A stretch of DNA of 60,798 bases, counting the filler, from Dimargaris cristalligena (Eukaryota): assembly GCA_003614675.1 (NCBI GenBank). It is 8 parts of 8 records of this genome, joined end to end, with 100 filler letters (N's around TTAATTAATTAA, not from the genome) between each part and the next. Parts side by side here need not be neighbours in the genome. Positions count along the whole stretch, not along the records: positions 22,891 to 30,408 come from ML003409.1; 7 more parts are not named here. One strand, 5' to 3'. A model generated the notes under the pieces. That model saw nothing but the letters and a program-made list of their open reading frames with translations, was not told the DNA's origin and made no database searches. Shown piece by piece: positions 4,840 through 58,562 of the stretch (positions are counted from its first letter, which is position 1; the number at the start of each line of letters is the position of its first letter). The position numbers and the translations under genes were made by a program.

Positions 4840-5005
4840 GTATGTTCATTGTATGTCTCCGCTCATTGGCTCGCGGCGGCTAACGGTATCCGTCTTAGCG
4901 TTTCTCCTCCATTAGCTTATCCTCCACCACCCAAGGCAAGCGGTGTCCACTCTATGCTCTTGACTAACCCGACTCTCTATTGACCACATCTTCCTCGCAA
5001 TTTAG
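4840..5005 (+). other. 5'-UTR intron of CCP1
   Basis: Donor GTATGT at 4840, branch site TGACTAAC near 4962, and acceptor TTTAG ending at 5005, two bases before ATG 5007. Confidence 0.65.
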
Positions 5006-5006
5006 A

Positions 5007-6122
5007 ATGCCTTTTGCCCTGCGTGGTCTCCGTTTGGCCTCCCGCCGTCTCCCCGGGGTGGGACTCACTCGTTCCTCTCCACCTTCTACCCTATTCCGCC
5101 GGGGGTACGCTGGTTCAACCTCTTCGACCAGCTCGGCCGGCAGCCCTTGGCTCGGCGTCCTCGTCGGGGGAGGCGTTGGTTTCGGCCTCGCCTACTACAT
5201 GTACGCCCCACAGAACAATGTCATTCCCTACACCAAGGACAAGGTGGACGACATTAAGGTGGAGAGTCAGCAAAAATCCGCACACGCCCCTTGGAAGAAT
5301 ATTGACTACCAAGCGGTGTACAACGACATAGCCGCCCTGCTTGATAAGGACGCCGAAGACTACGACGACGGCTCTTTTGGCCCCATCATTCTGCGCCTCG
5401 CCTGGCACGCATCGGGTACCTACGACAAGAAGGATCACTCGGGTGGATCCAACGGTGCTACCATGCGCTTCTCCCCCGAATCGAACCACGGTGCGAACCG
5501 TGGTCTCGAAGTGGCCCGCCATAAACTGGAGCTGATCAAACAAAAGTACCCGGACCTGTCCTATGCCGATCTGTGGACCCTCGCGGGAGTCGTGGCCGTT
5601 CAGGAACTCGGCGGCCCCCAGATCACCTGGCGCCCCGGTCGGTCTGACGCCACCGTCAATAAATGCACCCCGGACGGCCGGTTGCCCGATGCCTCCCAAA
5701 AGCAGGACCACGTCCGGGATGTGTTTTACCGCATGGGGTTCAATGACCAGGAAATCGTGGCCCTGGTGGGCGCCCACGCCCTCGGACGCTGCCATCGGGA
5801 ACGCAGCGGCTACGACGGCCCCTGGACCTTCTCCCCCATTAGCTTCACCAACGACTACTTCAACCAGTTGCTCAACCAAAACTGGGTCATCAAGAAATGG
5901 GACGGTCCCCAGCAGTTTGTGGATAAGGACACGGGCTCGATCATGATGCTGCCCGCTGACATGAGTCTCAAGGAGGACCCCGAGTTCCGTAAATACGTCG
6001 AACTCTACGCCAAGGACGAGGAACGCTTTTTCGCCGACTTCGCCAAGGCCTTCAAGAAACTGATTGAACTTGGGGTTGATTTCCCTAATGATTCGCCCTC
6101 GCTAACCTTTAAGCCTCTCTAA
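5007..6122 (+). CDS. CCP1: mitochondrial cytochrome c peroxidase (class I heme peroxidase)
   Basis: Arg/Ser-rich presequence plus hydrophobic segment. Motifs [49 protein letters not shown] and MMLPADMSL. Confidence 0.96.
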
Positions 6123-6750: not shown

Positions 6751-6821
6751 GCGCAGATGGTTTAGTGGTATAATTACCGCCTGCCACGCGGTAGACCCGG
6801 GTTCGATTCCCGGTCTGCGCA
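6751..6821 (+). tRNA. tRNA-Gly(GCC)
   Basis: Acceptor stem GCGCAGA/TCTGCGC-A, D-loop TAGTGGTA, anticodon arm ACCGC-CTGCCAC-GCGGT, T-loop GGTTCGATTCC, and a downstream T-run. Confidence 0.96.
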
Positions 6822-7354: not shown

Positions 7355-7426
7355 TGCGTTGACGGGGAATCGAACCCCGACCACATGCTTGGAAGGCATG
7401 TATGATAACCATTTCACTATCAACGC
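7355..7426 (-). tRNA. tRNA-Gly(TCC)
   Basis: The reverse complement reads GCGTTGA...CATGC-CTTCCAA-GCATG...GGTTCGATTCCCCGTCAACGCA, a canonical cloverleaf. Confidence 0.95.
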
Positions 7427-7536: not shown

Positions 7537-7636
7537 NNNNNNNNNNNNNNNNNNNNNNNNNNNNNNNNNNNNNNNNNNNNTTAATTAATTAANNNNNNNN
7601 NNNNNNNNNNNNNNNNNNNNNNNNNNNNNNNNNNNN
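7537..7636. other. artificial contig linker
   Basis: N44-TTAATTAATTAA-N44, giving stops in all six frames. Confidence 0.98.
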
Positions 7637-7909
7637 ATCTATCTTTTCATTTAGGCTTCCCCTTTTGAGTATAAATACTCCCCCTTACTGCCACCTCTTG
7701 GAACAGCAAGTCTATTATCACCTTTCCCTTATCATCTATTTTTTTTAATGAAGTTCAGTTTTCAAGGATTTAATTTCAGTTCTTTACAGTTAGTACTGTA
7801 CCCCCATCCTAATACTAGTAGCCCACTTGGCCGAGTCTAAGCCCTGCCTACTGTTAGAAGCCTACCCTCAGGACTCTTGATGGACTAAGAGTAATTAACC
7901 CAGGCAACA
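7637..7909. mobile_element. LTR fragments: family-A 3' portion (7637-7788) joined to a family-B LTR end (7789-7909, minus orientation)
   Basis: 7637-7788 matches 30514-30667. 7789-7909 matches the family-B terminus ...GACTAAGAGT...CCCAGGCAACA. Confidence 0.75.
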
Positions 7910-8835: not shown

Positions 8836-11574
8836 TCAGGGGAAATGCCGAGGGTCTAGAGAGTGGCGCAGTTCCGGGGACAGATACTCTAGCAGTATCT
8901 GGGCTTGTTGAATGAGTTTGACCCGGGTCTCGCGATTCTGGGGGTCGGTAGAGGGCGTGTGGGCATTGGGGTGCCGTCCCATCCATCCATTTTCGGCTTG
9001 GGATGAGGAGGGCAGCGACTCATTGCCATTCATCTGGCTCAAGGAGTTGATTTCGGACCGGAGGATCAGCAAAAGCTCAATCACCTCTGCGTCCCGCCGA
9101 TTTTTGACCCAGCTCAAAAGGTCGGTCGTACAGAGGGATTGCCGATACCGCTTAAGCAACTCGACCTGTGCTTGCTCGGTTCGGGCATGCAGCCAAGTAG
9201 CAAAATTACCGCAGGTCAAAAATTGGCGGTAAAAGACGATATAGTCAACATTAGAGCCAAACGAATTGCGCAAGGGAATCTGGGAACCATGTGCATGCAG
9301 GGATTTGAGAAAGTCCTCCTGGTTAAAAGGCTTAAGTTGGAGACGCAGCTGTTGCGGCTGCGGTTGCGGTTGCTGCGAGTATGGTCGGTTAGTCAAGTTG
9401 TTGTGCAATAGCGGGTTGGTCTTGGGAATTAAAGTGGAAAAGTAGCGGTTAAGCGGGGCCAGAAACTTTTCAGTCAGGTCCAGAAAATGACGACGCAGAA
9501 TATTATTCAGGATGTATGACGACGTATAACCGGCCTCGGCCGCGGTAGTGATTTTGGCCAACAGAGCCCGGTCTTTGCCCACCACTGACTTCCACTTGGT
9601 CTGGAGTCCGGAACGGTGGGTTTCGTTGGATAGCCACTGGGGCGACTGAATTTGCAGCGACGCCAGAACATTCGATGCCTTGCTTGCACTACTATTCGCG
9701 GTTCCCCCAGCCTGGCGGGTTCGTTGATTAAGGCGACTAGAAGTAAAACGACTCTCCCGCCGGCGACGACTCTGGCCCAGATGGATAATATGGGGCCAAT
9801 GTTCGAGAGCTTGGTCAAAGAAGGGATTAGAAACCCCCAGTACCACATTAGGTGGGATACGGGTTTTACTGACGTAGGACTTGAATTCGGCGTCTTGGAT
9901 GGTGAAATAGGGACGCACGTCACCGCAATAAGTGATGGGTTGGATTAAATCCACCAGGGCCAGAACCGCCTGGCTGCACTCGGCGGGCGAGTCAGCCATT
10001 ACCACAAGAGGCTCACCAACCATCATGAGTTCCCAGCATTTCCAGAGGTCTTCAAGGGAGTGTTCAAAGGCGGAAAACAGACCATCGATTTGAACTGTGG
10101 CCAGAATTTGGTGGGATGGGTCGAGACGGGACATATCAAAGGCACAGGTTTCAAGAAGCTGGTGGCCCGACGGAGGGGGTAGCTCCACCTGTAGAGTACT
10201 GCCCAAGAAGGGCAGGTCTACGAGGGGCCCGGCGCCGGATTGGGGTGGGGGGTCGATGGTGGACCGGGCACTGCCATTGGAGGTCAGGGGGGAAAGCAGT
10301 GGGATAGGAGTCGGAGTTGGGGTAGGGGAGGGAGAAAGGGAGAAGGGCAGCATTTCCTCGGTGGGTGTGCGGGCCTCGGCGGTCAGTGGCGAGGTGGGCG
10401 AGGAGGGTGCAAGGGAGAGCGGAGACGTGGACGGAGACACGTATACCTCGTCGACATCCTCCCGCAGAGTAGGGGCGGGCATTTCGCCGGTGTACGGGGA
10501 GGGCCAGTCGGTACCAATACTGTGGGCGGCCGTTTCGAGAATGGAATGCCCGAGTTCAAAGTAGGGTGGACCCAAGAGCCGCACGATTTTGGTAAAAAGG
10601 CCGTGGTAGGGTAAGGGAGATATGAGTACAAGCGATTTTTGAAAGCAACCCCGCTTGAGGAAGGGGTCCTTCTTCTGGCGGAAAAAGACATAGGCATAGT
10701 AAAACGACGAGTCGGCGGCAGCCGGGCCCAAGTCGGCCGAGCGCGAGTGGGATGGGGGCGAACTACCCAGGGACCGCCCCTCCAGCCGCAATTTATTCAT
10801 AAGTTGGACGATGGTGGCCTCCCGCAACCCCGACTGGGGCGGGCCGGCATGGTGAACCGAGTTAAGCCGAGGTCGGTGGGCCTGTAGGTTGGGCACCGAC
10901 GTTAAGGAAGGGAATGGTGGTTGCTCGGTAGAGGCACTTCTGGGCTGCCCTGTGGGGGGCTGAAGTCGGCCTACGGGCTTCGGGTTCCGAAGACGAACCC
11001 GAAAAGTATAGACGATTTCGCATAGGTCACAGATGGCCGAATCGGGAAATGACGAGAAGGCGATTATCTTGGCCTCCTCCTCGGTGAAGGGGTGGGGTGG
11101 GTAGACGGTGGCAATGGTGGGACCGTAGTCCAGGTCAAAGTCCACGACGCAGAAGGCCAGTATCCAGGAACGAATCCGGGCGGCACAGGCACGGTTGGCT
11201 AAACGGTCGGAAGCCAAGCCGACGGTGGAAATGGAAAGCAGACGGGGAGCATGTGAGGAAGTACGAGACGTCGTAGAGGAAGAAGTAGTGGTGGTGGTAG
11301 CGGAAGAGGAGGCGGCTTTCTTGAGAGGTGAACTACGACGATTGCTTGAGCTGACAGAGTCGTGCTGGTGGAGCATTTCAAGGCTAATTTGCCGGGCGCG
11401 ATCGGACAGGGCGCCTTTCTGGGGCTGGTGCTGCGACGCACTCCGGTGAAGGGGCTTAAGTTTGAGCGGGGCTGGGGCGATGGAATAGCCGCGGGGGGAG
11501 TAATGGGAAAGAGGAAAGATGGGAGGGAGTGGTGGAGACCCGGCCTTGGTGGACGGGTTAATAGGCATAGTCAT
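8836..11574 (-). CDS. DENND6: DENND6/FAM116-type DENN-domain Rab GEF
   Basis: 912-aa ORF with WILAFCVVDFDLDYGP, AFSSFPDS, YVFFRQKKDPFLKRGCFQKSLVL, WELMMVGEPLVVMA, GDVRPYFTIQD and VVLGVSNPFF. Confidence 0.9.
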   Translation of the reverse strand: MTMPINPSTKAGSPPLPPIFPLSHYSPRGYSIAPAPLKLKPLHRSASQHQPQKGALSDRARQISLEMLHQHDSVSSSNRRSSPLKKAASSSATTTTTSSSTTSRTSSHAPRLLSISTVGLASDRLANRACAARIRSWILAFCVVDFDLDYGPTIATVYPPHPFTEEEAKIIAFSSFPDSAICDLCEIVYTFRVRLRNPKPVGRLQPPTGQPRSASTEQPPFPSLTSVPNLQAHRPRLNSVHHAGPPQSGLREATIVQLMNKLRLEGRSLGSSPPSHSRSADLGPAAADSSFYYAYVFFRQKKDPFLKRGCFQKSLVLISPLPYHGLFTKIVRLLGPPYFELGHSILETAAHSIGTDWPSPYTGEMPAPTLREDVDEVYVSPSTSPLSLAPSSPTSPLTAEARTPTEEMLPFSLSPSPTPTPTPIPLLSPLTSNGSARSTIDPPPQSGAGPLVDLPFLGSTLQVELPPPSGHQLLETCAFDMSRLDPSHQILATVQIDGLFSAFEHSLEDLWKCWELMMVGEPLVVMADSPAECSQAVLALVDLIQPITYCGDVRPYFTIQDAEFKSYVSKTRIPPNVVLGVSNPFFDQALEHWPHIIHLGQSRRRRESRFTSSRLNQRTRQAGGTANSSASKASNVLASLQIQSPQWLSNETHRSGLQTKWKSVVGKDRALLAKITTAAEAGYTSSYILNNILRRHFLDLTEKFLAPLNRYFSTLIPKTNPLLHNNLTNRPYSQQPQPQPQQLRLQLKPFNQEDFLKSLHAHGSQIPLRNSFGSNVDYIVFYRQFLTCGNFATWLHARTEQAQVELLKRYRQSLCTTDLLSWVKNRRDAEVIELLLILRSEINSLSQMNGNESLPSSSQAENGWMGRHPNAHTPSTDPQNRETRVKLIQQAQILLEYLSPELRHSLDPRHFP

Positions 11575-15165: not shown

Positions 15166-15265
15166 NNNNNNNNNNNNNNNNNNNNNNNNNNNNNNNNNNN
15201 NNNNNNNNNTTAATTAATTAANNNNNNNNNNNNNNNNNNNNNNNNNNNNNNNNNNNNNNNNNNNN
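15166..15265. other. artificial contig linker
   Basis: N44-TTAATTAATTAA-N44. Confidence 0.98.
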
Positions 15266-17461
15266 TTTAGATTCATAGGCAATAGGTTGTAATCCATGGC
15301 CTTGATCCTGCATTAGAACATCACCTTTACGCCAACCTTGCTAAATGTGTCTTTAGCCAAACCTCTTTAGAATACTTAGGCCATATCATTTCTGCTGCCG
15401 GTGTATCTGTAGAACCCCATAAAGTTCAAGCTATGCAAACTTTCCCTGTACCTACTACTGTTAAAACTTTACAATCCTTTTTAGGACTTACCAATTATTA
15501 TCAAAAATTCATTGCTAACTATTCTTTTATTGTGGCCCCACTCACCAGTGTACTTTGTAACAAACCAAAAGAACTCTTTTGGACACCTGAGTGTCAATCA
15601 GCTTTTGAATCATTATGTCATTAATTAAGTAGTACCCCTCTTTTAGCTTATCCTGATTATACCTTACCTTTTCAAGTATATACAGATGCCTCTAAGGTTG
15701 CTTTGGGTGCTGTTCTAATGCAGGATCAAGGCCATGGATTACAACCTATTGCCTATGAATCTAAAAAATCACCTGATCTTGAATCCCATTATGCTCCTCA
15801 TGAGTTAGAATTATATGCTGTTATTCATGCTTTAAAAATTTAGTGTCACTACTTATATAACCATCCTTTTACTGTTCACACTGATCATAGAGGTCTTCAA
15901 TTTCTTTCTACCACACCTAAGATTCCTATTCGCCTACATCATTAGCTTGAATTTCTCCTGGATTTTGATCCTGATATTAAGTATCTACCAGGGGCTAAGC
16001 AAGTTGTTGCAGATGTGCTGTCCCGATGTCACAAAACCCCAGCTCTTAATCAACATGTATCTATAGCTGCTACCTTGGCTCAATTACCCACTGATTGGCC
16101 ACAGTACATGGCACAGCTCTTACGGCGGGAACCATTACCACTGGAGATCTCAGTTACCACTTGGGAACATTTGGATTGAGAACTATCCCACTTCACATTA
16201 AACCCTGTATCAGGCTCTCTATGCTGACTCATCAACGGAAAACCAGTACCCTATATCGAACCCATTGCTCGTAACCATTAGATTCGATGGTTTCATGATA
16301 ACTACAGACATGAAGGGTACCAAAGCACCCATTATCAATTAAAAACACGAGTTTGGTGGCCACAGCTTCTTAGTTCAGTTTGCCAATTTGTTTGTGCTTA
16401 TCCTTGTTGTCAAATTCATTGTCAAGCATATCCTCTTACCACTGTTGAGCCTACACCCCCGGACCCTGTAGCCCAACCTTTGGACCAATGGGCTCTTGAT
16501 TTTGTAGGACCACTTATTTCATCAGTGAAGGGTAACATATATATTATTACAGCTATTGACCAAGCTACTGGATTCCCTATTTGCAAAGCTGTTCCTGAAG
16601 CTACTGCCGAAATTGCTAAATCCTTTTTAAGTGACAATATTATATCTATTTTTGGTTTACCTCGAGAAATACTTACTGATCGAGGTACCCAGTTTATGAG
16701 TCATAGTTTTGAATCCTTTTTGCAACACCATAATATCCACTATTTAACTACTTCCGCTTACCATCCTCAGACTAATGGCCGAGTAGAACAATTTCATGCA
16801 GAACTCAAAGGAGCTATCACACGTCAAAATACAGGGGCACATCAAAATTGGGATACTTTTTTTCCCATGGTACTATTAGCCATTCAGACTTGCTATTCTC
16901 AGGTAACACAAAGTACACCATATTATTTGGTGTTTGGTCGTCACCCTCGGATACCTGGTGACCAAATCTTACCATTGTTACCAGAGTCAGATATTAACAC
17001 ACTGCAACATCATGCTCAACAGTATCTACCTAGTGTTTAAGAACATTATAAATGGGTATTCTCAATTTGCTAGCTCAAACAAACTCATACTTGATAACGA
17101 TTTTAGGATAAACAACCACAATCTCATCAATTCAAAGTCAATGATGCCATTTTGTTATGAGATCCCATAGCTAGGTCCTTACAATCCCATTGGTTTGGAC
17201 CTTTTCATATTCACCAGGTTCTACGATATAACACATATCTATTAATGTCCCCTAACATGACCATCAGTCCCATTCCTATCCATGCCTCCCAGTTAAAACC
17301 AGCTGTAGTATTGTATCTTAATTATCATGCTTAGCACTTACCACTATGGTATATATGCACCCTTGGGGAGGATGGTGTTGTGGTAGGACCTGAGACTACT
17401 TAGTCAATTATAGTATTCCCTTTTTCAATCACATTCTATTTTTATATCCTTTTATCAGTGA
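15266..17461 (+). mobile_element. degenerate Ty3/Gypsy LTR retrotransposon: RT C-terminus, RNase H, integrase, PPT (17365-17375) and start of the 3' LTR (17376)
   Basis: Motifs LEYLGHIIS, LQSFLGLTNYY, YTDASKVALGAVLMQ, ELELYAVIHAL, VHTDH, WALDFVGPL, ILTDRGTQF, SAYHPQTNGRVE and WFGPF. RT-RH-IN order, many in-frame stops, and GGGGAGGATGG followed by TGTTGTGG. Confidence 0.93.
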
Positions 17462-17996
17462 TGTCGCCCAAATTAACCACTCTTAGTCCATCAAGAGTCT
17501 CGGGGATAGGCTTCTAATGGTAGGCGGGGCGTTGGGCACAGCCAGGTAGGCTACTAGTGTTAGGTAGGGCTGATACTAATTAAATAAAGCAAGTGTCACT
17601 ATGTATGTGGGGGATGTGCACTGATGCACACTTACTAGTCAGTATGGGGGGTGAGCATATATAGGGTTTATTTGGGGTAAACTAAGGGGTCCGAATAAGC
17701 TGCCTATTAACCGGTCCCCATGGGGGGCCCGGTTATATATATGTGGGGGAACTACATAACTAAGATAATGATAGGGGGGGCCGGGTGGTCCTCATACGAG
17801 CAGAGGCTTCCATGGAAACTGGAAGACACTAAGATCACCTAGGAGTGAGTAGTGCGAACTCCAGGGGGGTCCGGCCAGTGAGATGATATATATGATGTCC
17901 GGCCCCATTAGGACTGGGGGTACAATATGGTGCTATGTGGTCTGCTATGACGGCAATTATTAGTGGATGGATTAGGTCAGATTAGGAGGGGTAACA
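17462..17996 (+). mobile_element. family-B solo LTR abutting or nested in the family-A LTR
   Basis: TGTCGCCC...AACCACTCTTAGTCC...GGGGTAACA, homologous to 25234-25818. Confidence 0.8.
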
Positions 17997-20916: not shown

Positions 20917-21469
20917 TGTCGGCCCACATAATCCACTCTAAATATGGGAATAACTGATTGTCCTGTCTAATCTTGCCTTATTGTGCTATATTACTCTCCC
21001 CTTACTATATAACCCCCTATGACTGGGCCCCAATGCTTCTCACACAATACTCCACTGGCTGATCCAATGTTCCTTCTCTCTTACTTGAGTCTTCCAGATG
21101 CAAGCCCCCTAGTTGAGGCCCTACCCCTCGCCTCTTCTTTAGTCATCCCATTGCTCTCAAGGACCCCTCATTATGAGTGGTCCCCACATATAAATAACCG
21201 GGCCCATCTGGGACCAGATCAGTTTTGGAGCTTATTTCCTTACCCCCATAGTTTACCTCAATTAACTCCCTATATGCTCACCCTATTGTATTAGCCAGTA
21301 AGTGTGCCTACTGTATGTCTCTTGCATTAGCCTGCACTCATCCTTTATTAGTTAGTACCGACCCCTCCCTAATACTAGTAGCCTGCTTGGCCGAGTCTAA
21401 GCCCCACTTACCATTAGAAGCCTACCCCTGGGACTCTTGTTGGACTAAGAGTGGTAAACTTGGGTGACA
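20917..21469 (-). mobile_element. family-B solo LTR with 5-bp TSD CTAAG (strand relative to the 25234 copy)
   Basis: TG...CA termini, with CTAAG at 20912-20916 and 21470-21474. Confidence 0.85.
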
Positions 21470-21472
21470 CTA

Positions 21473-22790: not shown

Positions 22791-22890
22791 NNNNNNNNNN
22801 NNNNNNNNNNNNNNNNNNNNNNNNNNNNNNNNNNTTAATTAATTAANNNNNNNNNNNNNNNNNNNNNNNNNNNNNNNNNNNNNNNNNNNN
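22791..22890. other. artificial contig linker
   Basis: N44-TTAATTAATTAA-N44. Confidence 0.98.
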
Positions 22891-23074: not shown

Positions 23075-24990
23075 TTTATTAGGTATGTTTCGACCAATCA
23101 GAGGTCTTTTTAAATAGACTACAAACAAACTGATTACACACTCAGGCTGACGTTGTTCTTCACCAGTTTTCACAATGTCTTAAGCCCTTAGTCACCTGGG
23201 ACTTTCTAGGTGAATATGGATGGTAGTTGTGGGTACTGTAGAATAATATACCTTATCGTCCAAATTGACAATGGAGTAGTGTCATTTTACCCTTTTTAAT
23301 GCATTACCCAACAATAAAAATGCAGGGTAATGCAGTCTATTAGCTAGTCAGGGTACCCAATGGGCAATATGGTGCCCCGTGAAGTGATGGGGTATATAGT
23401 TAACTTATGTGAACTTGGGCGGTCAGTTAGAATCATGGAGGCCCTCCTACATATCGCGTCTTGCACCTATACCATTCTTTAATCATCCACAAGACCCAGG
23501 TAATACTTGGTTGGAGGAGACTCTGATAATAAAATTAGCGAATGTAGTCCTCAATTGCTATTCAATCATCTCATCATTTCGTTAGTTTTCTATCTTTATA
23601 ATAACACCTGGCTTGCTTAACCCATGTGTGCATTTCCTGTTGCAATATATCATTCAACAGGGCGACTGCCGTCTGAACCATATTCGGTAGCCTAGAATTG
23701 CAGCACGGCGGCTTTACTAGCTGTGCCGTTGATGCTTTATGATTCTAATCATCTTACACGTAAACATTTTCTAATAAACTGGAAAGGGAGGGAACTGGCT
23801 CAATTTCCCCAGCCCACCATTATGTATATACATTGCAAGAACCTTAAACCATGCAACCACTATTGAGAGGTTGGCATCACTCGTTTTTCCACAAGTCACT
23901 TTCCAAATTTTAAAATATATAAGGAACCGGTGTTCCTAGCAAGCTTTTCCAATATTATCCCCCAATTATATTATTTAGTCAACTACTGTGGACACCAGTT
24001 AGCCTTATTTTAATTATTTTCCGACATCGCTCAACATTTGGCCCTTGCAGCCAAATCGGTTATATAGTCTCCTGCAAACTAGTTTACCAACGTTCCTCTC
24101 GGCAACTCAATTTTCAATATTCAATTGGCTTTTAGCATGCATACATCAGAACCCCTCAGCACTTGGAGTGATCTGAGATGTGGAGGTAGGATTCGTAAAT
24201 AGTAATAATTTTTTAAGTACCGTAAGGATATTTGGTCAGAACCGGTCATCGTACTTCATGCTTGGCATTTTAGTCTGTATTGGGCCAACCGTCTCGCATC
24301 AGTAAACATAAAGCGCCTTGGTCTAACCTATTTCAATTATTATATTAACTACTATAATAATGGGGACAAATATTTTCTCACATCTCGACCATTAATTTCT
24401 TACCATGTCAGATGAGATTGTTATCATCTTTATAGCCAGACCTGACCTGAAATATACAGCCATGTTTATTGAATATATTCCCTTCATCGACGAAGTCGTC
24501 CTGTGTCTTGCCGATGGTTACAGAAGATCATACAGGGCTGGCACGATTCAGTACTATTTGGATTAACAGTCAAAAGTGACGCCTTTCTCGCTCTGAACAA
24601 GGTGCCTAATCCAGACCTGTTTGTCAGCCCACTTGCTTTAACCACCTGACTTTATTGCTCCATGTTAAAGTACCCTTTATCATCTTGTGGATCACACACT
24701 GACTTATAAAAATAAATCAGTCACTAAATGTCCAAACACAAAATATTGTCCACTAATTTTACTACCCAGCATTAGCTAGGTAACTTTCTGGTCAGACAAA
24801 TAATTGCATCCGTTGTTGGGGTGTCAGTCACAACCGGGTTAAAGGTATATGAGCAGTATGGACTACGTTTTGGCAGTCTGGCAAGAGGTGGAGTAGTATC
24901 TATTGACCAATTTTCAGAAATATCAATTCTGATTATCTATCAATTAATCCAGGCTGGGCGGGACATCTGAATCTAGTGGGGAGGAGGCCC
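23075..24990 (+). repeat. tandem segmental duplication copy 1 (copy 2 at ~26343-29017, interrupted by LTR 26397-26982)
   Basis: Colinear blocks, e.g. 24645-24710 vs 28673-28738 match at 54/66 nt. Shared TATATAAGGA boxes near 23916 and 27941. Confidence 0.85.
24137..24566 (+). CDS. orphan microprotein family member 1 (67 aa); exons 24137-24185, 24412-24566
   Basis: The spliced product MHTSEPLSTWSDLRCGDEIVIIFIARPDLKYTAMFIEYIPFIDEVVLCLADGYRRSYRAGTIQYYLD aligns without gaps to the paralog at 28156. TATA box upstream. Confidence 0.75.
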
Positions 24991-25233
24991 CAAACAAACT
25001 GGTGGGATAACCATAGAATCTCATGAAGGATGCTATATTGAGATAGATAAATCAATTTCACCAGCTTAGAATAGAAAGGAAGCAAGAATTAAGCTTAACA
25101 CAGTGGTATTTATTGGGTATAATCTTGACTAATAAGATCCCTCAAAATACCCAGCACAGTGGATGGTACTCGTGGGGAGATGCAGTCACCCATTTAGTAT
25201 GGTCAAGGGTTTTTTTTTATTTGGAGATATCAA

Positions 25234-25818
25234 TGTTACCCAGGTTTACCACTCTTAGTCCATTAAGAGTCCTGGGGGTAGGCTTCTAATGGTAGGTAGG
25301 GCTTTAGGCTCAGCCAAGCAGGCTACTAGCATTAGGTATAGGGTACAGTACTAACTAATAAAGGCCTAGACAATTAGTTATGTAAGGGACGTGCAGCAGG
25401 CACACTTACAGGTTAGTACAAGGGGGTGAGCATATATAGAGTTTATTTGAGTAAACTAGGGGGTAAGAATAAGCTAAGGAACCTAACTGGTCCCAATGGG
25501 GCCTGGTTATATATGTGTAAGGGACAACTCCAGAGGGAGGTCCCCAGAGGAGAATACTACTAAGACTAAAGTATGGTAGAATAGGCCAACTGGATAACCA
25601 TTAGGTCCTAGAAGACTCTAATGGTAACTGGAAGAGTCTTTGGATTAGCAATTGAGTAATTAGTGCAAAGAGGCAGAGTCTGGAAGGGGAATAGTTATAT
25701 GATATAGGGTAATCCCATAGTACCAGGAGTGACTATGGGAAGGTTAACATGGTGCTATAAGGCCTAATAAGGGCAGTCAGCCTGGTGTCCAGATTAAGGT
25801 GGATTAGAAGGGCTGACA
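25234..25818 (+). mobile_element. family-B solo LTR with 5-bp TSD ATCAA
   Basis: TGTTACCC...GCTGACA, with ATCAA at 25229-25233 and 25819-25823. Confidence 0.9.
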
Positions 25819-26396
25819 ATCAACCAAGGGAAATGTAGACCCCTATTATTATTAATAGAGGGTTATCCAAGTACCTAGCATTAACCAAACAGTCCATTGA
25901 GCTGGGCCTATGATTGGAGTAGAGCTACCCCTTGTTGAGTAGTGCCCCAGTGAAGGAGAGCCTGGAAATGTTACCAGGGCCAACTTTGCCAAAACTGCAC
26001 TAACCCCATCATTTAGGGCTAACACCCCAGACTATTATAATGTAGTACTTAAATCCACCTCCAGACCAGACCTAGGCAAAGGCCTCAACATAGTTAACAG
26101 AAGTTTTTGCTTACACTTCTTCTTTGCTTAGACCTAAAATCCTCCAATATTAAAGGAAGGACCAATTAAGTATAATAATAGTCCACAGATGACTATGATC
26201 CCATTTGCTTACCATAGCTACCTAACTATTCCACTCTTTCCAATACCTACCATTATGTGTATTAAATAAAGGTATATATTAAATCTCCTCCTATGCATTA
26301 CTATTTGTACACACTCATTCACCCACTCTATAATATAATAATATTTATTATGTGCACTTTGACCAATTTGATGTATTTATAGCTATAACTTATAAG

Positions 26397-26982
26397 TATT
26401 GGCCCTCCTAATCCACCTTAATCTGGACACTAGGCTGACTGCCCTTATTAGGCCTTATAGCACCATATTAACCTTCCCATGGTCACCCCTAGTACTATGG
26501 GATTACCCTATATCATATAACCCTTCCCCTTCTGGACTCCAGCTCTTCATACTCATCACTCAGCATGCTGATCCAAAGATTCTTCCAGTTACCATTAGAG
26601 TCTTCCAGATCCTAGTAGCCATCCAGTTAGCCTATTCTCACTATATACCTTAGTTACCCATAGTCTTCCCTTGGGACCCCCCTCTGGAGTTGTCCCCACA
26701 TATATATAACCAGGCCCCCTTGGGACCAGTTAGATTACTTAGCTTATTCTTACCCCCTAGTTTACCTCAATTAACTCTATATATACTCACCCCCTCATAT
26801 TAACTAGTAAGTGTACCCACTGCACATCCCTTGCATAACTAATCACCTAGGCCTTTATTGGTTAGTACTGTACCCTATACCTAACACTAGTAGCCCGCTT
26901 GGCTGAGTCTCAAGCCCCACCTACCATTAGAAGCCTATCCCTGGGACTCCTAACAGACTAAGAGTGGTAAACCCAGGCAACA
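26397..26982 (-). mobile_element. family-B solo LTR, inverted relative to 25234-25818
   Basis: Reverse-complement match over the full length. Flanks ATAAG/ATAAT give a 4/5 TSD. Confidence 0.85.
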
Positions 26983-28155
26983 ATAATAATAATGGTTTTA
27001 TTCCTAGAATTAGATGGACCTTTACCAGTATGCACAATGCCTTGAACCCTTAGTTATCTGGTACTTTCTAGATGGATATAGATAGTAGCTGTGGGAGCCA
27101 TATAGCAATGCATAATGCCATCCAAACTGATACTGGAATGGTAACATTTTACCTTCCCAATGACATTGTCCAAAAGTAAAAATGCCGGGATAAATAGCCT
27201 GCTGACTAGTTGGGGAATCCAGTAGACAATGTAGTACCCTATAAAGTAAGGTGGCATCAAATTAACTTCCATGAACTTGGGTAGTTAGGGTGAATAGTGG
27301 GGATCCCCATACTTATTATGTTTTACGCCTATACCGTTCTTTAATTGTTCACACAATCTAGGCCATACTTCCATGGAGGAGGCCTTTGTGATATGGTGCA
27401 CTAATATAGTTTATAATAAGCATTTGATCAAACCATTGTTACGTTGGCACTCTTTCTTTCTAACAGATTTTGAATGGTCTAACCCATCCACATGTTTCCC
27501 GTTGGAATATATCTGGAAAGGCAGTGGTTGCCCTCCGAGCAATATTCAATATCCCTAAATTATGGTGTGGCGGTTTTTATAGCTGTGTCGTTGATGCTTT
27601 ATGATTCTTATCATCCCATACGTAAGCGCTTTTCCTTAAACCATAATGGGAATACATTGACTCGATTTCCAAAGGCAACCAACATAATTGCACTACCTCT
27701 TTATTAGATACGGTAACAATAGAATTGGTGAAACAGAATTTGGCTAACAAAGGCCTTTATTGGTGAAGCGCTTTCTTTTTTAGATTCTTAGAATAGGTAC
27801 CATCCGTTAGGTAGGGAAGTCGCTGATTCATGGGCAAGTTATTATGTGTGAACATATTGTAAGAACCTTAAACCATACAACCGCCATTAGTATTATTGCA
27901 TCACCTGTTCTCCCATAAGACACTTTCCAAAATCCCGACATATATAAGGAGGTGACTGTTCTTACAAGGCCAGCCAATGTCATTTTCCAACTATATTATT
28001 CAGTCAACTACTGTGAACACCCACTAACCATCTTTTAATTCTCGTCTGTCGTCACTCAAAGTCCGCTCCTCGTGTCAGATTCGACTGTATAGCCTCCTGC
28101 AAACCAGTTCACCAACGTTACCCTCAGCAACCCGATATCCGACCTGCTTTTTAGC

Positions 28156-28591
28156 ATGCCTGCATTAATTTTCCGGGATGACTGGGAATCTCTGGCGAAA
28201 GGAGGTAAGAATCGTACATGGGAGGTGGGGGGGGATGTTATTTAAGAGCTGTATGAATATTTGGTCATAATTGACCTTCATAATTCAATTTGACATTAAA
28301 ATTTTTATCGGACCAACTGCCTTGCGACAGTGTTCATAATTCGCCTAGGTCAAACCTAATCCAACTATTATATTCAATACAGTAATACCGGGGCTAACAG
28401 CCCACTTACTTCTAGATTTTTTTCTTCTTATTTTACCAGCTTCTATCTCATTCATTTTTAAGGACAAGCCTCAAGAGACACGTAATGCTATATTCTATGA
28501 ATATACAGACTTATCAGAAAAAGTCGTCCTGTGTTTTCCGGATGGTCACGTGCATGAATACGCCTCGAGCTCAGTTGCATTTTGGGTCTAG
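28156..28591 (+). CDS. orphan microprotein family member 2 (66 aa); exons 28156-28204, 28440-28591
   Basis: GTAAGA donor, GCTAAC branch and CCAG acceptor give MPALIFRDDWESLAKGASISFIFKDKPQETRNAIFYEYTDLSEKVVLCFPDGHVHEYASSSVAFWV. Confidence 0.78.
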
Positions 28592-29501
28592 TAACATTCA
28601 AGAGATTGGCCTAACTCCCTCTGATTAACGAGTCTAGTTTCAAACCGTTTGTCAGTCGGGGTGCTTCACCTGCCTGATTTTATTGCTCCGTAATAAAATT
28701 CACTTTATCACCTTGTTGATCACGCGCTGATTTATAAACGCGAATCAATCACTGAATGCCCAAACAAAAAATAACGTCCACTAATGTTGCTACCCATCAT
28801 TATCAAGGTGATTCGCGGATCAGACAACTAACTATGCCTGTCACTGGGGTGTCAGTCGCGAGGGTTAGAGGGATGGGGACAGTTTAGGCTGTATTTTGAC
28901 AGTCTGGTAAGATGTAAATAATATACAATTGACCAATCATCAGAAATAGCTCTTTCAACTATCTATCAGTTAATCCAGGCGGAGTGTGATATCCGAATCT
29001 GACGGCGAGGAGGCACAGAATTCAAAAATGGGGTTAGGCCAAATGTTGAGAAGGGATAGCCATCTTTAATTATTCACCAATAACCATTAGCTATATTTTT
29101 TTACCCATGCACATTGGCCATACAGAGTTGCAAATGTTCACTAGCCACATTTATTGGTACACCCATTACACATATCGCATTGGCTGAATTGGATTCCTAT
29201 CACTTGAGCTGTACAACCGAAACATTGAAAATATAGATATTTGGCTGAAAAAACCAGATCGTGCTTATGTCCTATGCAAAGAAAATGATGATAAAAGGAC
29301 GGGCCAATCTCCCCTTTGTCTTCATCCAAACAACTCACCCACCTCATCTGTTTATCCATTTCTCATTTTCATTATACCTTAACTGTCGTGGTAAGTATTG
29401 CCACACCCTCGGCAGGATTTCGCAGACTTGTTTTCGACAAAACGCCTTTCATTGTTCCTATATCCACCCCACCCACCCCCACCCTTTCACTCTCCAAAGT
29501 A

Positions 29502-30122: not shown

Positions 30123-30408
30123 TATCACCCGGGTTAACCTCTCTTAGTCCATCAAGAGTCCTGAGGATAGGCTACTAGCATTAGGATGGGGGTGTAGTAC
30201 TAACTAATAAAGGACAGATACAGGTAAATACCAGGGATGTGCAGTGGGTACACTTACTAGTTAGTATGGGGGGGTGGGTGAGTATATATAGAGTTTATTG
30301 GGGTAAACTAAGGGGTAGGGATATACTAAGGAATCAAACCAGTCCCAGTGGGGCCTGGTTATATATACACAGGGACAGCTCCAGAGGGAGGTCCCAAGGG
30401 AAATACTA
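30123..30408 (+). mobile_element. family-B LTR, cut by the contig end
   Basis: TATCACCCGGGTTAACCTCTCTTAGTCC... matches the other family-B starts. Confidence 0.8.
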
Positions 30409-30508
30409 NNNNNNNNNNNNNNNNNNNNNNNNNNNNNNNNNNNNNNNNNNNNTTAATTAATTAANNNNNNNNNNNNNNNNNNNNNNNNNNNNNNNNNNNN
30501 NNNNNNNN
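30409..30508. other. artificial contig linker
   Basis: N44-TTAATTAATTAA-N44. Confidence 0.98.
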
Positions 30509-30931: not shown

Positions 30932-31512
30932 TGTCACTTGGGTTAACCACTCTTAGTCTGTCAAGAGCCCTAAGGATAGGCTTCTAATAGTAGGTGGGGC
31001 TTAGACTCGGCCAAGTGGGCTACTAGCATTAGGACAGGGGTGTAGTATTAACAAATAAAGGACAGATGTAGGGAAATGTCAGGGATATGTAGCAGGTGCA
31101 CTTACTAGTTGGTACAAGGGGGGTGAATGTATATAAGGTTTATTGAGGTAAACTGGGGGATATGAATAAGCTAAGGTTTGAACCAGTCCCAGGAGGGTCT
31201 GGTTATATATACATGGGGATGGCTCCAGAGGGAGGTCCCAAGGGAAATACTACTAAGACTAAGGTATGGAAGTAAAGAATCCAATTGGACAACTTCACAT
31301 TGGGAAGACTCTTATGGGAACTGGAAGAGTCTTGGATCAGTGAGTTGAGTGTTTAGGGTGCAAAGTATTGGGGTTGAATTGGTGGGGTTATATAATAAAA
31401 GGTGACCCCATAGGACCAGGGGTGACTATGGGAGGGTTAATATGGCACTATAAGGCCTAATAAGGACAGGTGATTGTTAGGTCTGGATTAAGTTGGATTA
31501 GGAGGGCCAACA
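30932..31512 (+). mobile_element. family-B solo LTR
   Basis: TGTCAC...GGCCAACA. Flanks GGCAG/GGTAG give a 4/5 TSD. Confidence 0.85.
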
Positions 31513-32938: not shown

Positions 32939-34625
32939 AGTACTTTGCGATACGGCTACAAATATGGTTGGTGAGCGGCAGGGTAAGATAGTGAGTTATT
33001 GAACTAGACCGGAAGGTTCGGCTGAAGCGAGTCGAGGGTATTCGATTGTCAAAGAAGTGGAGTGTAAGTATGAGGTTAATTATCTACTTACTATTTTCTA
33101 CGGTGTGGTGGTATGGGTTATATACAAATTAAGCTAGACTTGATCGTCAAGGCTAGACCAGCCGAAAAATTTAGCAAGTAATGTAATGTATCTAAAGTTA
33201 AAGTATCAATTGATTCCATAAGTGCCGTTTAAAATGCCAGGCATTGTTGTCGTGCTTAATAATAAATAAGATTAAAGCCGACTAACTATGAAGGACTAGG
33301 CGCCATCATCGCCTAGTTCCATTGGCGAAGCGCGGATACTCGGTCTTGTTTAAGGACCACCTTCCTTCAGCCATTCCCGCCATGCGATTCACATACTCCA
33401 TATATCCCCTTCATTATATACCCATATATTATTAGATATCCTTTATACAACTATCTAGTGGCGTCTTCCAGCATCTTCTATGCTGGTTCAAAGCCTTTAT
33501 TATTGGTCTACTCGGCTATGTAAAGCTGGGCCAATTCCTATAGTTATTATTATCTTATTAATTACCACTTACTCTATACCCCCTTTTATAATTAACTCGA
33601 TCCATTTGATACTCCCATATTTCTTATCTATAAAGTTCCCTTCGCGTCAACTGCTTGTGTGGTATCTTTTGTATACTCGCCCGAGGCGTAGACACTTAAT
33701 CATCCCTTGGATTATTGCCTACGACACCCATTCTACTATATTCCTGGCATGTTCCTGGCATTGCTATCTCGATACGTCCCGTTTAAGTGCACCTCCAATT
33801 AGCTCCTCGCAATATGGTATTCTTATACTGAAATTCCCCTGTATTGTTAGGAGAATTCCCCATATGGACTCAGATATGACGTTAGGATGGCTAACCACCA
33901 CAGCCGAAGCCGATATAGTTATATTTATGGTTATCGAATTAATCACTAAGTACACCTTTGCTTTTACGTGCCTCTTTTCTATTTAAAACCCAGCCTTGAG
34001 AGACTATTGCCCAAGCACTCTAGTTTGGGCAGCCAACGTTAGTCAAAGCGATCTTGATCCAATTTGGATAAATTTGATAGCCCCTGGCCCCTTACTTTAC
34101 TATTGATAGCCATTGTACTATGGTCATCTTTAGCCACGCGGACTACATCTGCCCCACACTAAAGTTACTGAAAGCAGTCGCCGCGGGTCTTTGTCTTTCT
34201 ACTTGCGTGACAAGTATTGGTTCTCGATTATTTCTTAAATTACTGTAAATACCATCCCTGCCATTACACTAAACTGGCTGTGAATGCGTAACACAGCCAT
34301 TATGATTGTGCCTACGCCATTCATCTAGCTATTAGCGATAACTGCCTTATTGCTCACTTTTTATTAATATAGTCCCTTTATAATCACAATTTCCTTTTTT
34401 TTGTCCTAGCATTAAACTAGTGGTATAAAAATATCCCGTCCTCTGTCCTCCATACACTATTCTTACACATATTTTTAATTACCGCTCGCACCCCTACCAC
34501 CAAAATAGCCTTGCACATTTATGAGTGGGTTAAAATGGGGTCCATAGGGCCTTAATAGGGGTAAATACATATAAAAAGCAGATATTACGAAGGAATACCC
34601 CAAAGACTGTTGGAGGTTTGAGTGA

Positions 34626-38017: not shown

Positions 38018-38117
38018 NNNNNNNNNNNNNNNNNNNNNNNNNNNNNNNNNNNNNNNNNNNNTTAATTAATTAANNNNNNNNNNNNNNNNNNNNNNNNNNN
38101 NNNNNNNNNNNNNNNNN
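38018..38117. other. artificial contig linker
   Basis: N44-TTAATTAATTAA-N44. Confidence 0.98.
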
Positions 38118-44847: not shown

Positions 44848-45621
44848 TCGGATTATATTGGTTAGAGTCACACTGGAACCATCTGTCAGCGGTGGTGGAT
44901 TTTACCCTTCGCCCGACTGGACTATTCGTTTTTTCAAAATGATGCATACACCACTATAGAGATACTAGGCCCAGTTGGGGGATTAGATACCAACGGGACA
45001 TCAGCCAGCAATAGTTGTACCGAGTATATCCTTTTTATACCTTCGAAGTATGATAATGCAATAAAGAAGGTACCTTATATCGCTGACAAAAGGAAATCAT
45101 TACGTTAGTTACGGTCCATTAACGATAGACCTCACCCTCCCTAAGCATTACTCTAACGCACAGCCAAATGCAATAACATATTTTGGGCATTGTAAATAGC
45201 TAAAATAGAAAAAGTTGTAGCATTGACTATTCCCAAGTGGTCACCCACCTCAGTACTAAATCAACTGACCGAAGCTTATCTTCGCAGATCTAACGGGATA
45301 CGGAGCATATTACGACATATGGCCACAACTGAAAAAGTTGAAAATATAAAGTATTTATTAGTACTATATTTAATAAAATCCATTAGTTGTGTAATAATTC
45401 CTGGGCTTACCCAGTGTTGTGGCCGGGCCTGCTTAATCTCTAATAGTATATCCCGGCCAAACTATTTTTAGTTTAGGAAGATGAAGAACATCACCAAATA
45501 CAAGTCTTCATCTTTTCCCACCCAGTTATAAGCCATTCAATGACTAGGCCGTTTTTCCAATATTCAACATTCAATATTCAGTATTCAGTATTCATAGTTC
45601 TTACTTATAACTCGAGGATCA

Positions 45622-45721
45622 NNNNNNNNNNNNNNNNNNNNNNNNNNNNNNNNNNNNNNNNNNNNTTAATTAATTAANNNNNNNNNNNNNNNNNNNNNNN
45701 NNNNNNNNNNNNNNNNNNNNN
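45622..45721. other. artificial contig linker
   Basis: N44-TTAATTAATTAA-N44. Confidence 0.98.
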
Positions 45722-47103: not shown

Positions 47104-50100
47104 TCATTGGTCTCCGAAGTGCTTAAGGAAGGGGAGTTGGGAGCGGTCAGAGCATCGGTGGAGATGGACTGATGCGCGGAAACCTCCACCCCCGCCGTCG
47201 AAGTTGGTAAGCCCGATTCTACCGGCATCTCGGAGGCTACTGGGGGGGTTATTGCCGGTAGCGAGCCAACATTGATACTGAGCATCCATGATCAGGTTAC
47301 CCACCAGGAATTCGAGCTGGCGTTCGATATCACTCGTGTACTGGTAGAGAATGCGAATGGCCCGACTATCGGCGGGACGTCGCTGGGTGACTGAGCTACC
47401 GCCGATGGGCACACTAGTGGTTGCCGGCGAGAATACTAAGGGACGTTGCATCTGCGAACGGCCATTAGGGGAAGTAGGAGCGGTTGGCATGGTCGATGAT
47501 GGCACAGTCGCGGTAGAAGGACCATTACCGCCACTCATGCTATCAAGGGAGGTGCACAGGGTGCCCAATAGTGACGAAAAGGCGACCCCGCGGGATTGAT
47601 GGGCAACCACAGAAGCGAGACTGGAGTCGACACAACTATCGGGGGCTCCACCATAAAGCTGGTCCAAGAAATGTGCCTCCAGATGCTGGCGTTGGGTGCG
47701 CATAGCCGCTACCACCGCGCAAGTACGCTGAGCCGCATCGTAGCGGCCAGCTTGGACGAGAATGGCCGGTAGGACCGAGAGATAGGCCGTTTCTAGGACC
47801 AGCTGCGCGTGTTTACGCTCGGGAGCACTTAGGCCGGTCACGCCAGTTGAATGGAGCTGAATAATGGTCCGGGCTAGGTCAAGGGCACGTTGTAAGCAGA
47901 GGTCCCGTTCTACGGCATCACCCCGTTTATGGTGCATGACAACCAACGCCAAGTTAATGTACCAGTGTAGAAGCCAGGGCTGATTCGTTCCGCGAGTAGT
48001 GGGTAGACCGACATTAGCGGTCGAGCCCGACGTCAATTGAGGAAGGCGGTCCAGCAGAGCGGTAAGAGCCCGATGGCCCTCGCCGGTACGGATAAACTGG
48101 TCGGTATAATGGCGGGTCCGGTTGAGTACAAACAAGTGGGATAGTGTCATTAGAGGGTCTACGGGGTTAGCCAGGACCAATTGGATACGGGGCCATTCCA
48201 CAGTAAACGCACTACTGCGGGTAAAGGGTTTCCATTCGCCGTCGAGGTAAAAATCGGCGGCTGCGGGTTCGTGCAGGAGCCATTGCCAGTGGTTGTTACG
48301 GCCGATGGCGAGGTGAGCGGGACTACTGTCATCTCGCGACCCGGGGGCGGGCAGTGGGGCAGTGCGGGCCGCGGTCACGGCCCAGTTCCACACCCGCCGA
48401 GCCACCATATTACGTACATAGCGGATGCCCAAGGACTTGTGAACATGCAACGCAGCGGTGAGCCAAGCTCGGGCCACTGGGTAATTGGGCGTTACCGAGC
48501 CCAAACTAAAGGAGCGGAGCCAGGCATACACCTTCATCAGGCTAGGGAGCGACACGTCTTCGTGGAAAAGCTGCAGCTCACTCAAGCGGAGCCAAGTTAG
48601 GGAAAGTTCCTGGCCATGACGCTCGGGCAAACAGGCACTAGGGGCAACCAAGCGCACCACTTCCCCGAAGATACGCAGAGCCATGGACCGGTAAGAGCGG
48701 GGCAGGGGGGTGTTGTTGATTTCGGCCACTGAGTTCATCAAATGGGAGTGGGAAACGGCCACTGCGGTCTTCGAGACCTGTGCCCTAGTACGCGGTCGAT
48801 TGGTTCCCGCAGCAGTAGCTGATCCGGTAGTTCTCTCAGATCCTTGTTGACTCAAAGCAGTCGCCGAATCGGCTGGGTCGGTAGGTGTGCTAGTCGTAGT
48901 TTCAGATACCGCTGGACGGGTACCATAACGAGCACGCCAGTACTGCCGGTTCTTCTGAGACTTCTGGCTGCCACCGAACCAATCGTCATAAAAGAGGAGG
49001 CCGAGAAGACAGCTCAAGAACACAAAGATACGCACCCCCATAAATAAATTGTGGGCCGAAACAACATGCCCAACGTGCTGGGACCAACTGCCGACAAAGG
49101 GCAAGGCGGAGAGAGCACGGTGCTGGCCCGATTCCTCGTTGGATGGTCCCGGCCCGTCGAAGAAACTAGCGCAGAGGAAGACGCCCATGACCGCCCGGGC
49201 AGGGAATCCGCCTCCACCCGATGATGATCCACCACCGCCGGAGCGAGTTGGTGTGGTCACAGGCGAAGATGATGAACTATCCGAGTCGCTGTGATTGCCC
49301 ACGGCGCTGGTCATGTCAGTATCGGCTTCGGGGACTGGTCCGGCGGAGGACGTAGTGGATTCAGTAACGGGAGAAGAGTCGACCCGGTGGAGCTCCTCCG
49401 CAGCCTCCTCTTCGTCCTCCTCGTCATCAAGGTCACCCATACAGCTGCCACTCTGGAGCTGGCGGATATAGGCGTCAGCCTCAGTCTGGGCCTGGTTACC
49501 CAGCGATTCCAAAAGAGCGGCGGCGTCGGGTACGTTTTGCAGCACCAGCTGACGGAGTTGGTCCTGTTCTCGGCGCATGCGGTCATTGGCGCGCCGCAAG
49601 TGCCAAACGTATTCCGTAGCTTTGCGTAGGATAGTGGCCTTGTTTAACTTGGATGCGGGTGCAATGCCGTCCACCTCTTTGGGCAGACCCTTGGCGTTCC
49701 GGATGGTCTTGCTTTCCCGGGGCGCAGGTCCAGCATCCAGGGAGCTGGTAAAGGACATACCGGTTTGGTTTTCCTCGTCCTTCACCTGCTGGGCATGCAG
49801 CAGGGCAGGAATGGAATCTTTCAACTCCCGAATGCGGTCGTTGATGTTATTACGATAGCGCCGCTCAATGGCATTATGGGCGATTCGTCGCTGGTTCTTC
49901 ACGGGTGGACCGCTGATGGTTCCCTCAGGGGAGCGGGGCACTATAGGCGGACCGACTGCCCCGGGGGAATGGACCCGGCTAATGGCGATTTTGGAGTTAT
50001 TGGAGGAAGCCCCTGTATCTAATGCTGGGGAAATCGGGATGGGGGCAAGTGAGGCGGTCGGGGCTGGTGGTGTGGAGCTATTGGATGCGATGGCTGGCCG

Positions 50101-53213: not shown

Positions 53214-53313
53214 NNNNNNNNNNNNNNNNNNNNNNNNNNNNNNNNNNNNNNNNNNNNTTAATTAATTAANNNNNNNNNNNNNNNNNNNNNNNNNNNNNNN
53301 NNNNNNNNNNNNN
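53214..53313. other. artificial contig linker
   Basis: N44-TTAATTAATTAA-N44. Confidence 0.98.
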
Positions 53314-58034: not shown

Positions 58035-58562
58035 GATAACGTTTTGTCGGAGGGAGTGGGGTTGATATTCGGGAAGTATAGGAATAGGGCCAAGTGATGA
58101 AGGTGTAAGAATGTATAGAATGGGGCGAATGATGTGAGTCAGGGACTCCATGAGAGACGGACAAGTTTCGGGCACCGCCAATCCCCTTGATGGCCCCTCC
58201 TTTGGAAATGCACTGCTTCCCACTTGGCATTATATCAGCAGGGCTTTTCTTCCTTACTAACGAACAATATATATGGGATGACGGGGGTGGGATTTTTATT
58301 CCCATTTATTTAGCCTCGTCCTCCAACGAGTGGGAGGTTTTAAATAGAAGCATGGACTGAATTTGTGGTGTGTATCACCGCAAATTGTTCAAAAGGTAAT
58401 AGAACATACGCTTCTCTGTGACTCTCCCTTGGTGTATCACTTAAAATTAACCAGGGTAACCTACCCATAGCCGCGTAGGAATAGGCTGTAACCCATGCCA
58501 ACTAACTTTGGCCATTGCTACCTCGTTTTCTAGCCCCTTTCCGTACTGTCGTAGATACCCGT

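Follow-up and report, generated by a model that had tools for sequence, protein, structure and literature searches.

Exon-specific divergence between two predicted microprotein genes of Dimargaris cristalligena

When two copies of a duplicated DNA segment are compared, why should the predicted coding sequence be the part in which they differ most? This question is raised by a 60,798-nt stretch of the genome of Dimargaris cristalligena (GenBank assembly GCA_003614675.1; eight joined parts of eight records), here called the window, in which a preliminary description had noted a duplicated unit of about 2 kb with a small spliced gene in each copy. All positions given below are those of the whole window, and copy counts cover this stretch. 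We found the duplication, with units of 1831 and 1995 nt, and in both copies could read the proposed TATA element, conserved ATG context, 49-nt exon, phase-1 intron and exon of about 150 nt. The features are as follows.

23158..24988, + strand: duplicated unit, copy 1, 1831 nt (self-blastn and alignments)
23915..23925, + strand: TATA-like box of copy 1, ATATATAAGGA (read from the sequence), followed by a 210-nt leader with no ATG
24137..24185, + strand: exon 1 of copy 1, 49 nt, comprising the ATG, 16 codons and 1 nt
24186..24411, + strand: intron of copy 1, phase 1, GTAGGA...CAG, 226 nt, GT..AG
24412..24566, + strand: exon 2 of copy 1, 155 nt, stop TAA; 67-aa product with exon 1
24567..24988, + strand: conserved 3' non-coding flank of copy 1, likely 3' untranslated region plus downstream DNA (71.7% identity to copy 2)
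27020..29014, + strand: duplicated unit, copy 2, 1995 nt (self-blastn and alignments)
about 27682-27846, + strand: about 160 nt present in copy 2 only, either inserted there or lost from copy 1, on the upstream side of the promoter region (alignment)
27940..27950, + strand: TATA-like box of copy 2, ATATATAAGGA (read from the sequence), followed by a 204-nt leader with one ATG at 27977
28156..28204, + strand: exon 1 of copy 2, 49 nt
28205..28439, + strand: intron of copy 2, phase 1, GTAAGA...CAG, 235 nt, with CTAAC at 28394-28398
28440..28591, + strand: exon 2 of copy 2, 152 nt, stop TAG; 66-aa product with exon 1
28592..29014, + strand: conserved 3' non-coding flank of copy 2 (alignment to copy 1)

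Divergence is concentrated in the two exons

The copies lie in the same orientation and their non-coding parts align at 66-72% identity, beyond the far upstream part with few gaps apart from the insertion of about 160 nt. Identity was 65.6% far upstream, 69.8% in the leader and promoter, 65.8% in the intron and 71.7% in the 3' flank; it was 53.7% in exon 2 and 44.9% in exon 1 (22/49 nt, the count given earlier), the most diverged part of all. When pooled, 102 of 198 coding columns were identical (51.5%) versus 1098 of 1615 non-coding ones (68.0%; Fisher p = 7e-6). No non-coding window of 198 columns fell below 56.6% identity (0/827), and none of 49 columns was as low as exon 1 (0/1423). The claim that the coding DNA is more diverged than its flanks thus holds in a specific form, in that both exons are accelerated and the intron between them is not. 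A highly similar block in the 3' flank, previously put at 54/66 nt, also exists, with a best gapless count of 55/66.

Transversions occupied 55/198 coding columns (27.8%) versus 191/1615 non-coding ones (11.8%, p = 1.7e-8), and raw transitions were equal (20.7% versus 20.2%). We considered this asymmetry as a proof of selection and rejected it, since equal raw transitions reflect saturation. Once the 15 invariant codons are set aside, the Kimura two-parameter distance is 1.44 for the 51 other codons versus 0.44 for non-coding DNA, an approximately 3.3-fold difference in which transitions and transversions are both raised. Where conserved residues have degenerate codons, the third position differs in 4/17, approximately the non-coding rate; the mutation rate of the exons therefore seems not to be raised, which argues against a local hot spot.

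Repeat-induced point mutation (RIP) was also considered as the cause of divergence and discarded. The gene units fail the second of the two RIP indices (TpA/ApT 0.9; (CpA+TpG)/(ApC+GpT) 1.2), transversions make up 191 of the 517 non-coding differences, and by raw counts the entire exon excess consists of transversions.

Both copies share the start context TTTTAGCATGC, the donor GGAG/GTARGA (the slash marks the exon border), a YAG acceptor, the intron phase and the length of exon 1. Splicing would be needed for either product, because unspliced read-through from the ATG stops after 21 codons in copy 1 and 29 in copy 2. Both genes are probably transcribed and spliced. The lack of ATG in the copy 1 leader was also seen in 301/5000 shuffles, and the single ATG in the copy 2 leader lies about 27 nt past the TATA-like box. 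In the 3' flank we found no open frame common to both copies.

An AT-rich motif (CAAYTATATTATT-like) occurs in both leader and intron, 374 nt apart in each copy (23965-23994 and 24339-24368 in copy 1, 27986-28002 and 28360-28376 in copy 2). The recurrence may reflect low complexity arising by chance, or the motif may be a regulatory element that is shared. Rfam yielded no RNA family in the region, and the idea of a small nucleolar RNA host gene with conserved introns was dropped, there being no Rfam family and the intron being no more conserved than the flanks. The far upstream part (23158-23819 versus 27020-27681) aligns without a gap over 662 nt (65.6% identity, 151 transitions, 77 transversions); this accumulation of point changes without insertions or deletions is unexplained. 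In both copies it contains many stops in six frames, and no conserved open frame was found there.

Coding signal, products and predicted fold

To obtain a null for the reading frame, the 96 observed differences were scattered at random over copy 1 in 20000 trials. The frame stayed open in 931 of these, and the BLOSUM62 sum reached the observed 84 in 151; the two occurred together in 10. Differences are also clustered by codon, with 15 codons unchanged and 13 changed at all three positions, a pattern matched by 24/20000 permutations in the proposed frame versus 705 and 735 in the shifted frames. In both copies GC content is 43% in exons and 35-37% in introns (35% in the intron of copy 1). Together with the predicted fold described below, frame retention, codon clustering and composition provide four independent lines that speak for coding. 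The frames earlier described as intact do behave as coding sequence, and the two genes are very probably real.

The predicted products of 67 aa (copy 1) and 66 aa (copy 2) align without gaps at 19/66 identical residues, namely M1, W10, L13, G16, I19, I22, F23, P27, A33, F35, E37, Y38, V45, V46, L47, C48, D51, G52 and Y57, a set that contains every position previously listed as kept (W10, L13, G16, F23, P27, A33, F35, EY, VVLC, DG and Y57). Each product has 10 acidic and 6 basic residues (isoelectric points 4.7 and 4.9), a balance kept despite 71% replacement. Neither has a visible hydrophobic N-terminal stretch or signal-peptide-like start, in agreement with the preliminary description, and both are apparently non-secreted.

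Homology and fold analyses covered the 49-50 residues whose codons lie entirely in exon 2. AlphaFold2 was given the exon-2 parts as a two-row alignment that omits the 17 N-terminal residues (the 16 of exon 1 and the intron-split codon). It returned a six-strand barrel with a mean predicted local distance difference test score (pLDDT) of 92.0 and a predicted template modelling (TM) score, pTM, of 0.67, the five models ranging from 90.5 to 92.0. The same copy 2 DNA read in a different open frame gave one long helix (pLDDT 68.7, pTM 0.33), in a control that was run on a single sequence and is thus imperfectly matched to the two-row run. Of the 15 invariant exon-2 residues, 11 lie in predicted strands; P10, D34 and G35 (exon-2 numbering) lie in loops or turns. 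A complex prediction with the exon-2 parts of both copies gave no answer either way (score 0.00), and at least one ESMFold2 run on a single sequence left the fold of the partner uncertain.

Foldseek found no match in the PDB at E <= 0.001, all E-values exceeding 0.1, and the top neighbours were all small beta-barrels. The best overlap was with the small bacterial lipoproteins YgdR/YgdI (DUF903), which are of similar size: TM 0.82 to 2rd1_A (1.2 A root-mean-square deviation over 51 columns) and 0.72-0.77 to 3fif_A and 5cai_A, with E-values of 0.6-2.2. Those proteins differ in being bacterial and lipid-anchored, sequence identity is 8-13%, and we found no Pfam or NCBIfam match, no signal or lipobox, and a spliceosomal-type intron in the gene. 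Hfq (TM 0.72-0.73) and the LSm domain of Edc3 (0.70) followed at E > 1; the comparison with the five-strand bent barrel that follows an N-terminal helix in Sm, LSm and Hfq covers the exon-2 part only. Sm1/Sm2 motif membership (Pfam LSM) was not seen, no Pfam family appearing at E <= 1. Tudor domains scored 0.60-0.64 and SH3 about 0.5 (SH3/Tudor range 0.47-0.64 at E > 2), again without a Pfam-level match at E <= 1, and KOW-containing ribosomal and Spt5 chains were also among the neighbours. In a viral library, Foldseek returned unnamed phage proteins only, at E >= 0.1.

The modelled fold resembles a small beta-barrel of the SH3/Sm/Tudor kind, which upholds the earlier proposal of a small beta-rich SH3/Tudor/Sm-like fold at the level of fold class and not of sequence family. 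Such SH3-like, Sm, Tudor and KOW domains are surveyed in bioRxiv 10.1101/140376; the exon-2 parts of the predicted products share with such barrels a size of about 50 residues, five to six short strands and a closed form (TM 0.6-0.8 to Hfq, the Edc3 LSm domain, Tudor domains and YgdR-type proteins). The products differ in that they match no such family at the sequence level, are acidic where the RNA-binding Sm, Hfq and KOW members are mostly basic, and would be stand-alone proteins rather than domains of larger ones.

The search for relatives was negative throughout. HMMER recovered no relative at E <= 0.001 among 1.84 billion representative proteins, where a 50-position profile detects fairly close relatives only. 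A word-indexed protein search with the two-row alignment returned one candidate, and none scored. For either exon-2 product Pfam gave no family at E <= 1 and NCBIfam none, and a PDB sequence search gave a single unrelated match (E = 0.66). Back-translated patterns matched metagenome contigs 246 times, none confirmed by tblastn; the conserved 20-nt upstream block had no match in these contigs. The best score in an ESM Atlas feature search was 0.84, below the level that counts.

Selection and its rivals

The case for selection uses the intron and flanks as a neutral yardstick and is a comparison of two copies only. By the method of Nei and Gojobori (NG86) the proportions of nonsynonymous and synonymous differences were pN 0.481 and pS 0.500 (ratio 0.92). 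The former exceeds the proportion of differences in the intron (0.342, p = 0.008) and in all non-coding DNA (0.320, p = 8e-5). When dS in the pairwise codon model of Goldman and Yang (GY94) was tied to the non-coding distance (0.43-0.47), dN/dS (omega) was 2.0-2.4 at a cost of less than 1 log-likelihood (lnL) unit, and neutrality at the tied rate was rejected (2dlnL 17-25, p <= 4e-5). Amino-acid-changing sites evolved at about twice the rate of the 1.6 kb of non-coding DNA around them, with the intervening intron counted in. The simplest cause of an acceleration that stops at the exon borders, and in which frame, hydrophobic core and charge balance are all preserved, would be selection on the protein, in the form of repeated replacement of a stable barrel's surface.

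The best explanation, to which we assign a probability of roughly 0.55, is that the two are genuine genes, paralogs of each other, and that diversifying selection acts on the surface of the barrel. In this account duplication of a segment of about 1.9 kb gave two paralogous two-exon genes that now have an inverted repeat pair between them. Each gene would encode an acidic, non-secreted protein of 66-67 aa, with a 16-residue N-terminal segment from exon 1 and a six-strand barrel from exon 2. Since the duplication about 15 codons would have stayed fixed: in exon 1 those for Trp, Leu and Gly, and in exon 2 those for the DG turn and for hydrophobic residues of the strands, VVLC among them. The remaining approximately 51 would have been replaced at about three times the rate seen in leader, intron and 3' flank. 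Selection would favour new residues at the surface while the scaffold stays stable, and so may have produced two proteins with different partners. Since both proteins are acidic, a protein or peptide partner appears likelier than a nucleic acid.

Several observations weigh against this explanation. Left free, the GY94 maximum-likelihood fit gave omega 1.35-1.41 with dS 0.66-0.68, not different from 1 (p = 0.40-0.44). The strong diversifying selection originally proposed therefore has indirect support, from the non-coding yardstick and not from the classical ratio, and a dN/dS above 1 was not established on its own. Biopython estimators scattered from 0.67 to 4.6, the NG86 pS of 0.50 also exceeds the non-coding level, and the three codon positions differ equally often (32/32/32, each out of 66), as in non-coding DNA. 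Because relatives were not found in the protein, metagenome, Pfam and PDB searches, there are two sequences only and no outgroup. Given the Foldseek E-values, the fold class amounts to a likeness, not to homology, and the model covers only the residues that follow the first 17. The locus itself is AT-rich and repeat-rich, where decayed DNA is common, and splicing and expression are predictions from sequence.

The rival that survives best, which we nevertheless regard as unlikely, retains real genes and dispenses with positive selection: the exons would be near-neutral (omega about 1) and reflect the true age of the duplication, and the leader, intron and 3' flank would look younger through purifying selection or old gene conversion. 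The free GY94 estimates, the pS of 0.50 and the equal codon positions all suit it, and a model with omega = 1 (dS = dN = 0.83-0.88) fits equally. The flanks also hold blocks of up to 20 nt that are the same in both copies and possibly regulatory, which fits too. However, all four non-coding segments, which total 1615 columns with the far upstream part contributing 662 nt, are at 66-72% identity, and this uniformity requires constraint or conversion everywhere but in the two exons, the intervening intron included. A long near-identical tract, as after recent conversion, was not seen, and something still must have shielded the exons from homogenisation. The third positions of conserved codons, at the non-coding rate (4/17), likewise argue against it, and in the random scatterings drift kept the frame open in about 5% of trials and reached the observed amino acid similarity in less than 1%.

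We consider it improbable that there are no genes here at all, and that the frames are open by chance in a repeat-rich segment that was duplicated and is decaying, or belong to a mobile element that has escaped recognition. The empty search of 1.84 billion proteins, the absence of Pfam and NCBIfam matches, the equally differing codon positions and the AT-rich, repeat-rich location near an integrase fragment and dispersed repeats are in keeping with this idea. Yet start, donor, acceptor, phase and exon length are kept in both copies, the statistics of frame retention, similarity and codon clustering favour coding, and the predicted fold is confident (pLDDT 92 versus 68.7 off-frame). Chance frames would not be expected to stay open while being the most diverged part of the unit. 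As for a mobile element, we found no terminal inverted repeats and no long direct or terminal repeats of the unit, no Pfam transposon domain, and only two copies within the window.

Equally improbable is a mosaic origin, in which the exons of one copy were overwritten piecewise from a third, more distant paralog located elsewhere in the genome (exon segment switching) and the excess divergence is older ancestry, not faster change: codons 2-9 and the last 14 codons do have near random-level identity beside perfectly conserved anchors, and segment switching is described in the venom literature as summarised in PMC7285919, but no third copy was found in the window (self-blastn; tblastn at E <= 10) and the overwriting would have to comprise two separate tracts that each stop at the exon edges.

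Genomic surroundings and related systems

Exactly between the two gene units, and outside the genes, lies one further feature.

25228..26988, strand not assigned: spacer element, two inverted arms of a dispersed repeat of about 590 nt

The arms (25228-25813 and 26402-26988) are 85% alike and separated by a gap of about 590 nt; they differ mostly by transitions (69 transitions, 20 transversions). Unlike the gene units, this repeat conforms to both RIP-type indices (TpA/ApT 1.48; (CpA+TpG)/(ApC+GpT) 0.96). Further occurrences were seen at 30939-31510, 30170-30408, 21175-21470, 17461-17750 and 7788-7909. The repeat may be a long terminal repeat, because one copy lies directly downstream of an integrase fragment. 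That fragment, an open frame at 16282-17040 (+), has the zinc-binding and core domains of an integrase (rve E = 1e-15) and is part of a retrotransposon pol gene. A weak tblastn match at 33080-33175, across the exon junction, was full of stops and was set aside as unrelated.

Along the window, stretches of 45-59% GC alternate with one that is AT-rich, between about 18 and 34 kb. This is flanked by long intron-free open reading frames (ORFs) of ordinary genes: 47104-51141 (-), a 1345-aa product with an HLH domain; 56514-58223 (-), a syntaxin-18/SNARE protein; 4980-6122 (+), a haem peroxidase; and 8836-11574 (-), a 912-aa product with weak SPA/DENN matches. A dispersed 5S rRNA gene (45212-45330, -, 90 bits) and two tRNA-Gly genes, GCC at 6751-6821 (+) and TCC at 7355-7426 (-), were also recognised. 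Paired runs of 44 N recur about every 7.6 kb (7537-7636, 15166-15265, 22791-22890, 30409-30508, 38018-38117, 45622-45721 and 53214-53313), a regular spacing that suggests masking rather than assembly gaps.

By analogy, the closest known phenomenon would be the accelerated evolution of the phospholipase A2 (PLA2) isozyme genes of Crotalinae venom (Ogawa 1992, Nakashima 1993, as summarised in PMC7285919). According to that summary, these genes have conserved untranslated regions and introns, similar rates at the three codon positions, and a nonsynonymous rate (KA) near or above the synonymous rate (KS). The first two traits recur here, with 65.8% identity in the intron, 69.8% in the leader and 71.7% in the 3' flank versus 51.5% in coding DNA, and with 32/32/32 differences over the codon positions. 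The third compares with an omega of 1.35-1.41 that is not different from 1 (NG86 0.92; other estimators 0.67-4.6). A changing surface on a stable scaffold would be a further likeness to the venom enzymes as summarised. In contrast, the snake enzymes are secreted toxins and have a conserved signal peptide, and here exon 1 is the most diverged part and has no hydrophobic leader; the flanks given there are 89-98% alike versus about 70% here, where two copies are known.

Among fungal proteins, Skc1 of Fusarium verticillioides, a spore-killer candidate described in PMC4978907, may be compared by size and orphan status alone: it too has about 70 residues (70 aa), no recognised domain and almost no relatives, and lies in a genome of the filamentous-fungus type, within a hyper-variable region.

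Binding would be the likely function of the D. cristalligena products, and a role in intracellular conflict, self/non-self recognition or a toxin-antidote system, as once suggested for them, is speculation. We hold it distinctly doubtful that they belong to a family, so far undescribed, of small beta-barrel proteins that are hypervariable, intracellular and active in genetic conflict or recognition in filamentous fungi. Members of such a family might, for example, form a killer/protector pair, determine allorecognition or bind the products of selfish elements.

Exon-restricted acceleration is textbook knowledge for venom toxins and some immune genes. We know of no description of it for small intracellular fungal proteins, and our paper searches were not aimed at settling this point. 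If the two genes are expressed, they would provide a clean example of a microprotein that is not secreted and yet shows accelerated evolution restricted to its exons, with the intron as a built-in neutral control, and a compact system of scaffold and variable surface suited to binding-partner tests. More generally, paralog comparison combined with structure prediction can recognise two-exon genes of fewer than 70 codons, which are missed by ORF-based and many automatic annotations. Should the proposed family exist, its protein surface would evolve in an exon-restricted accelerated manner so far known mainly from secreted animal toxins.

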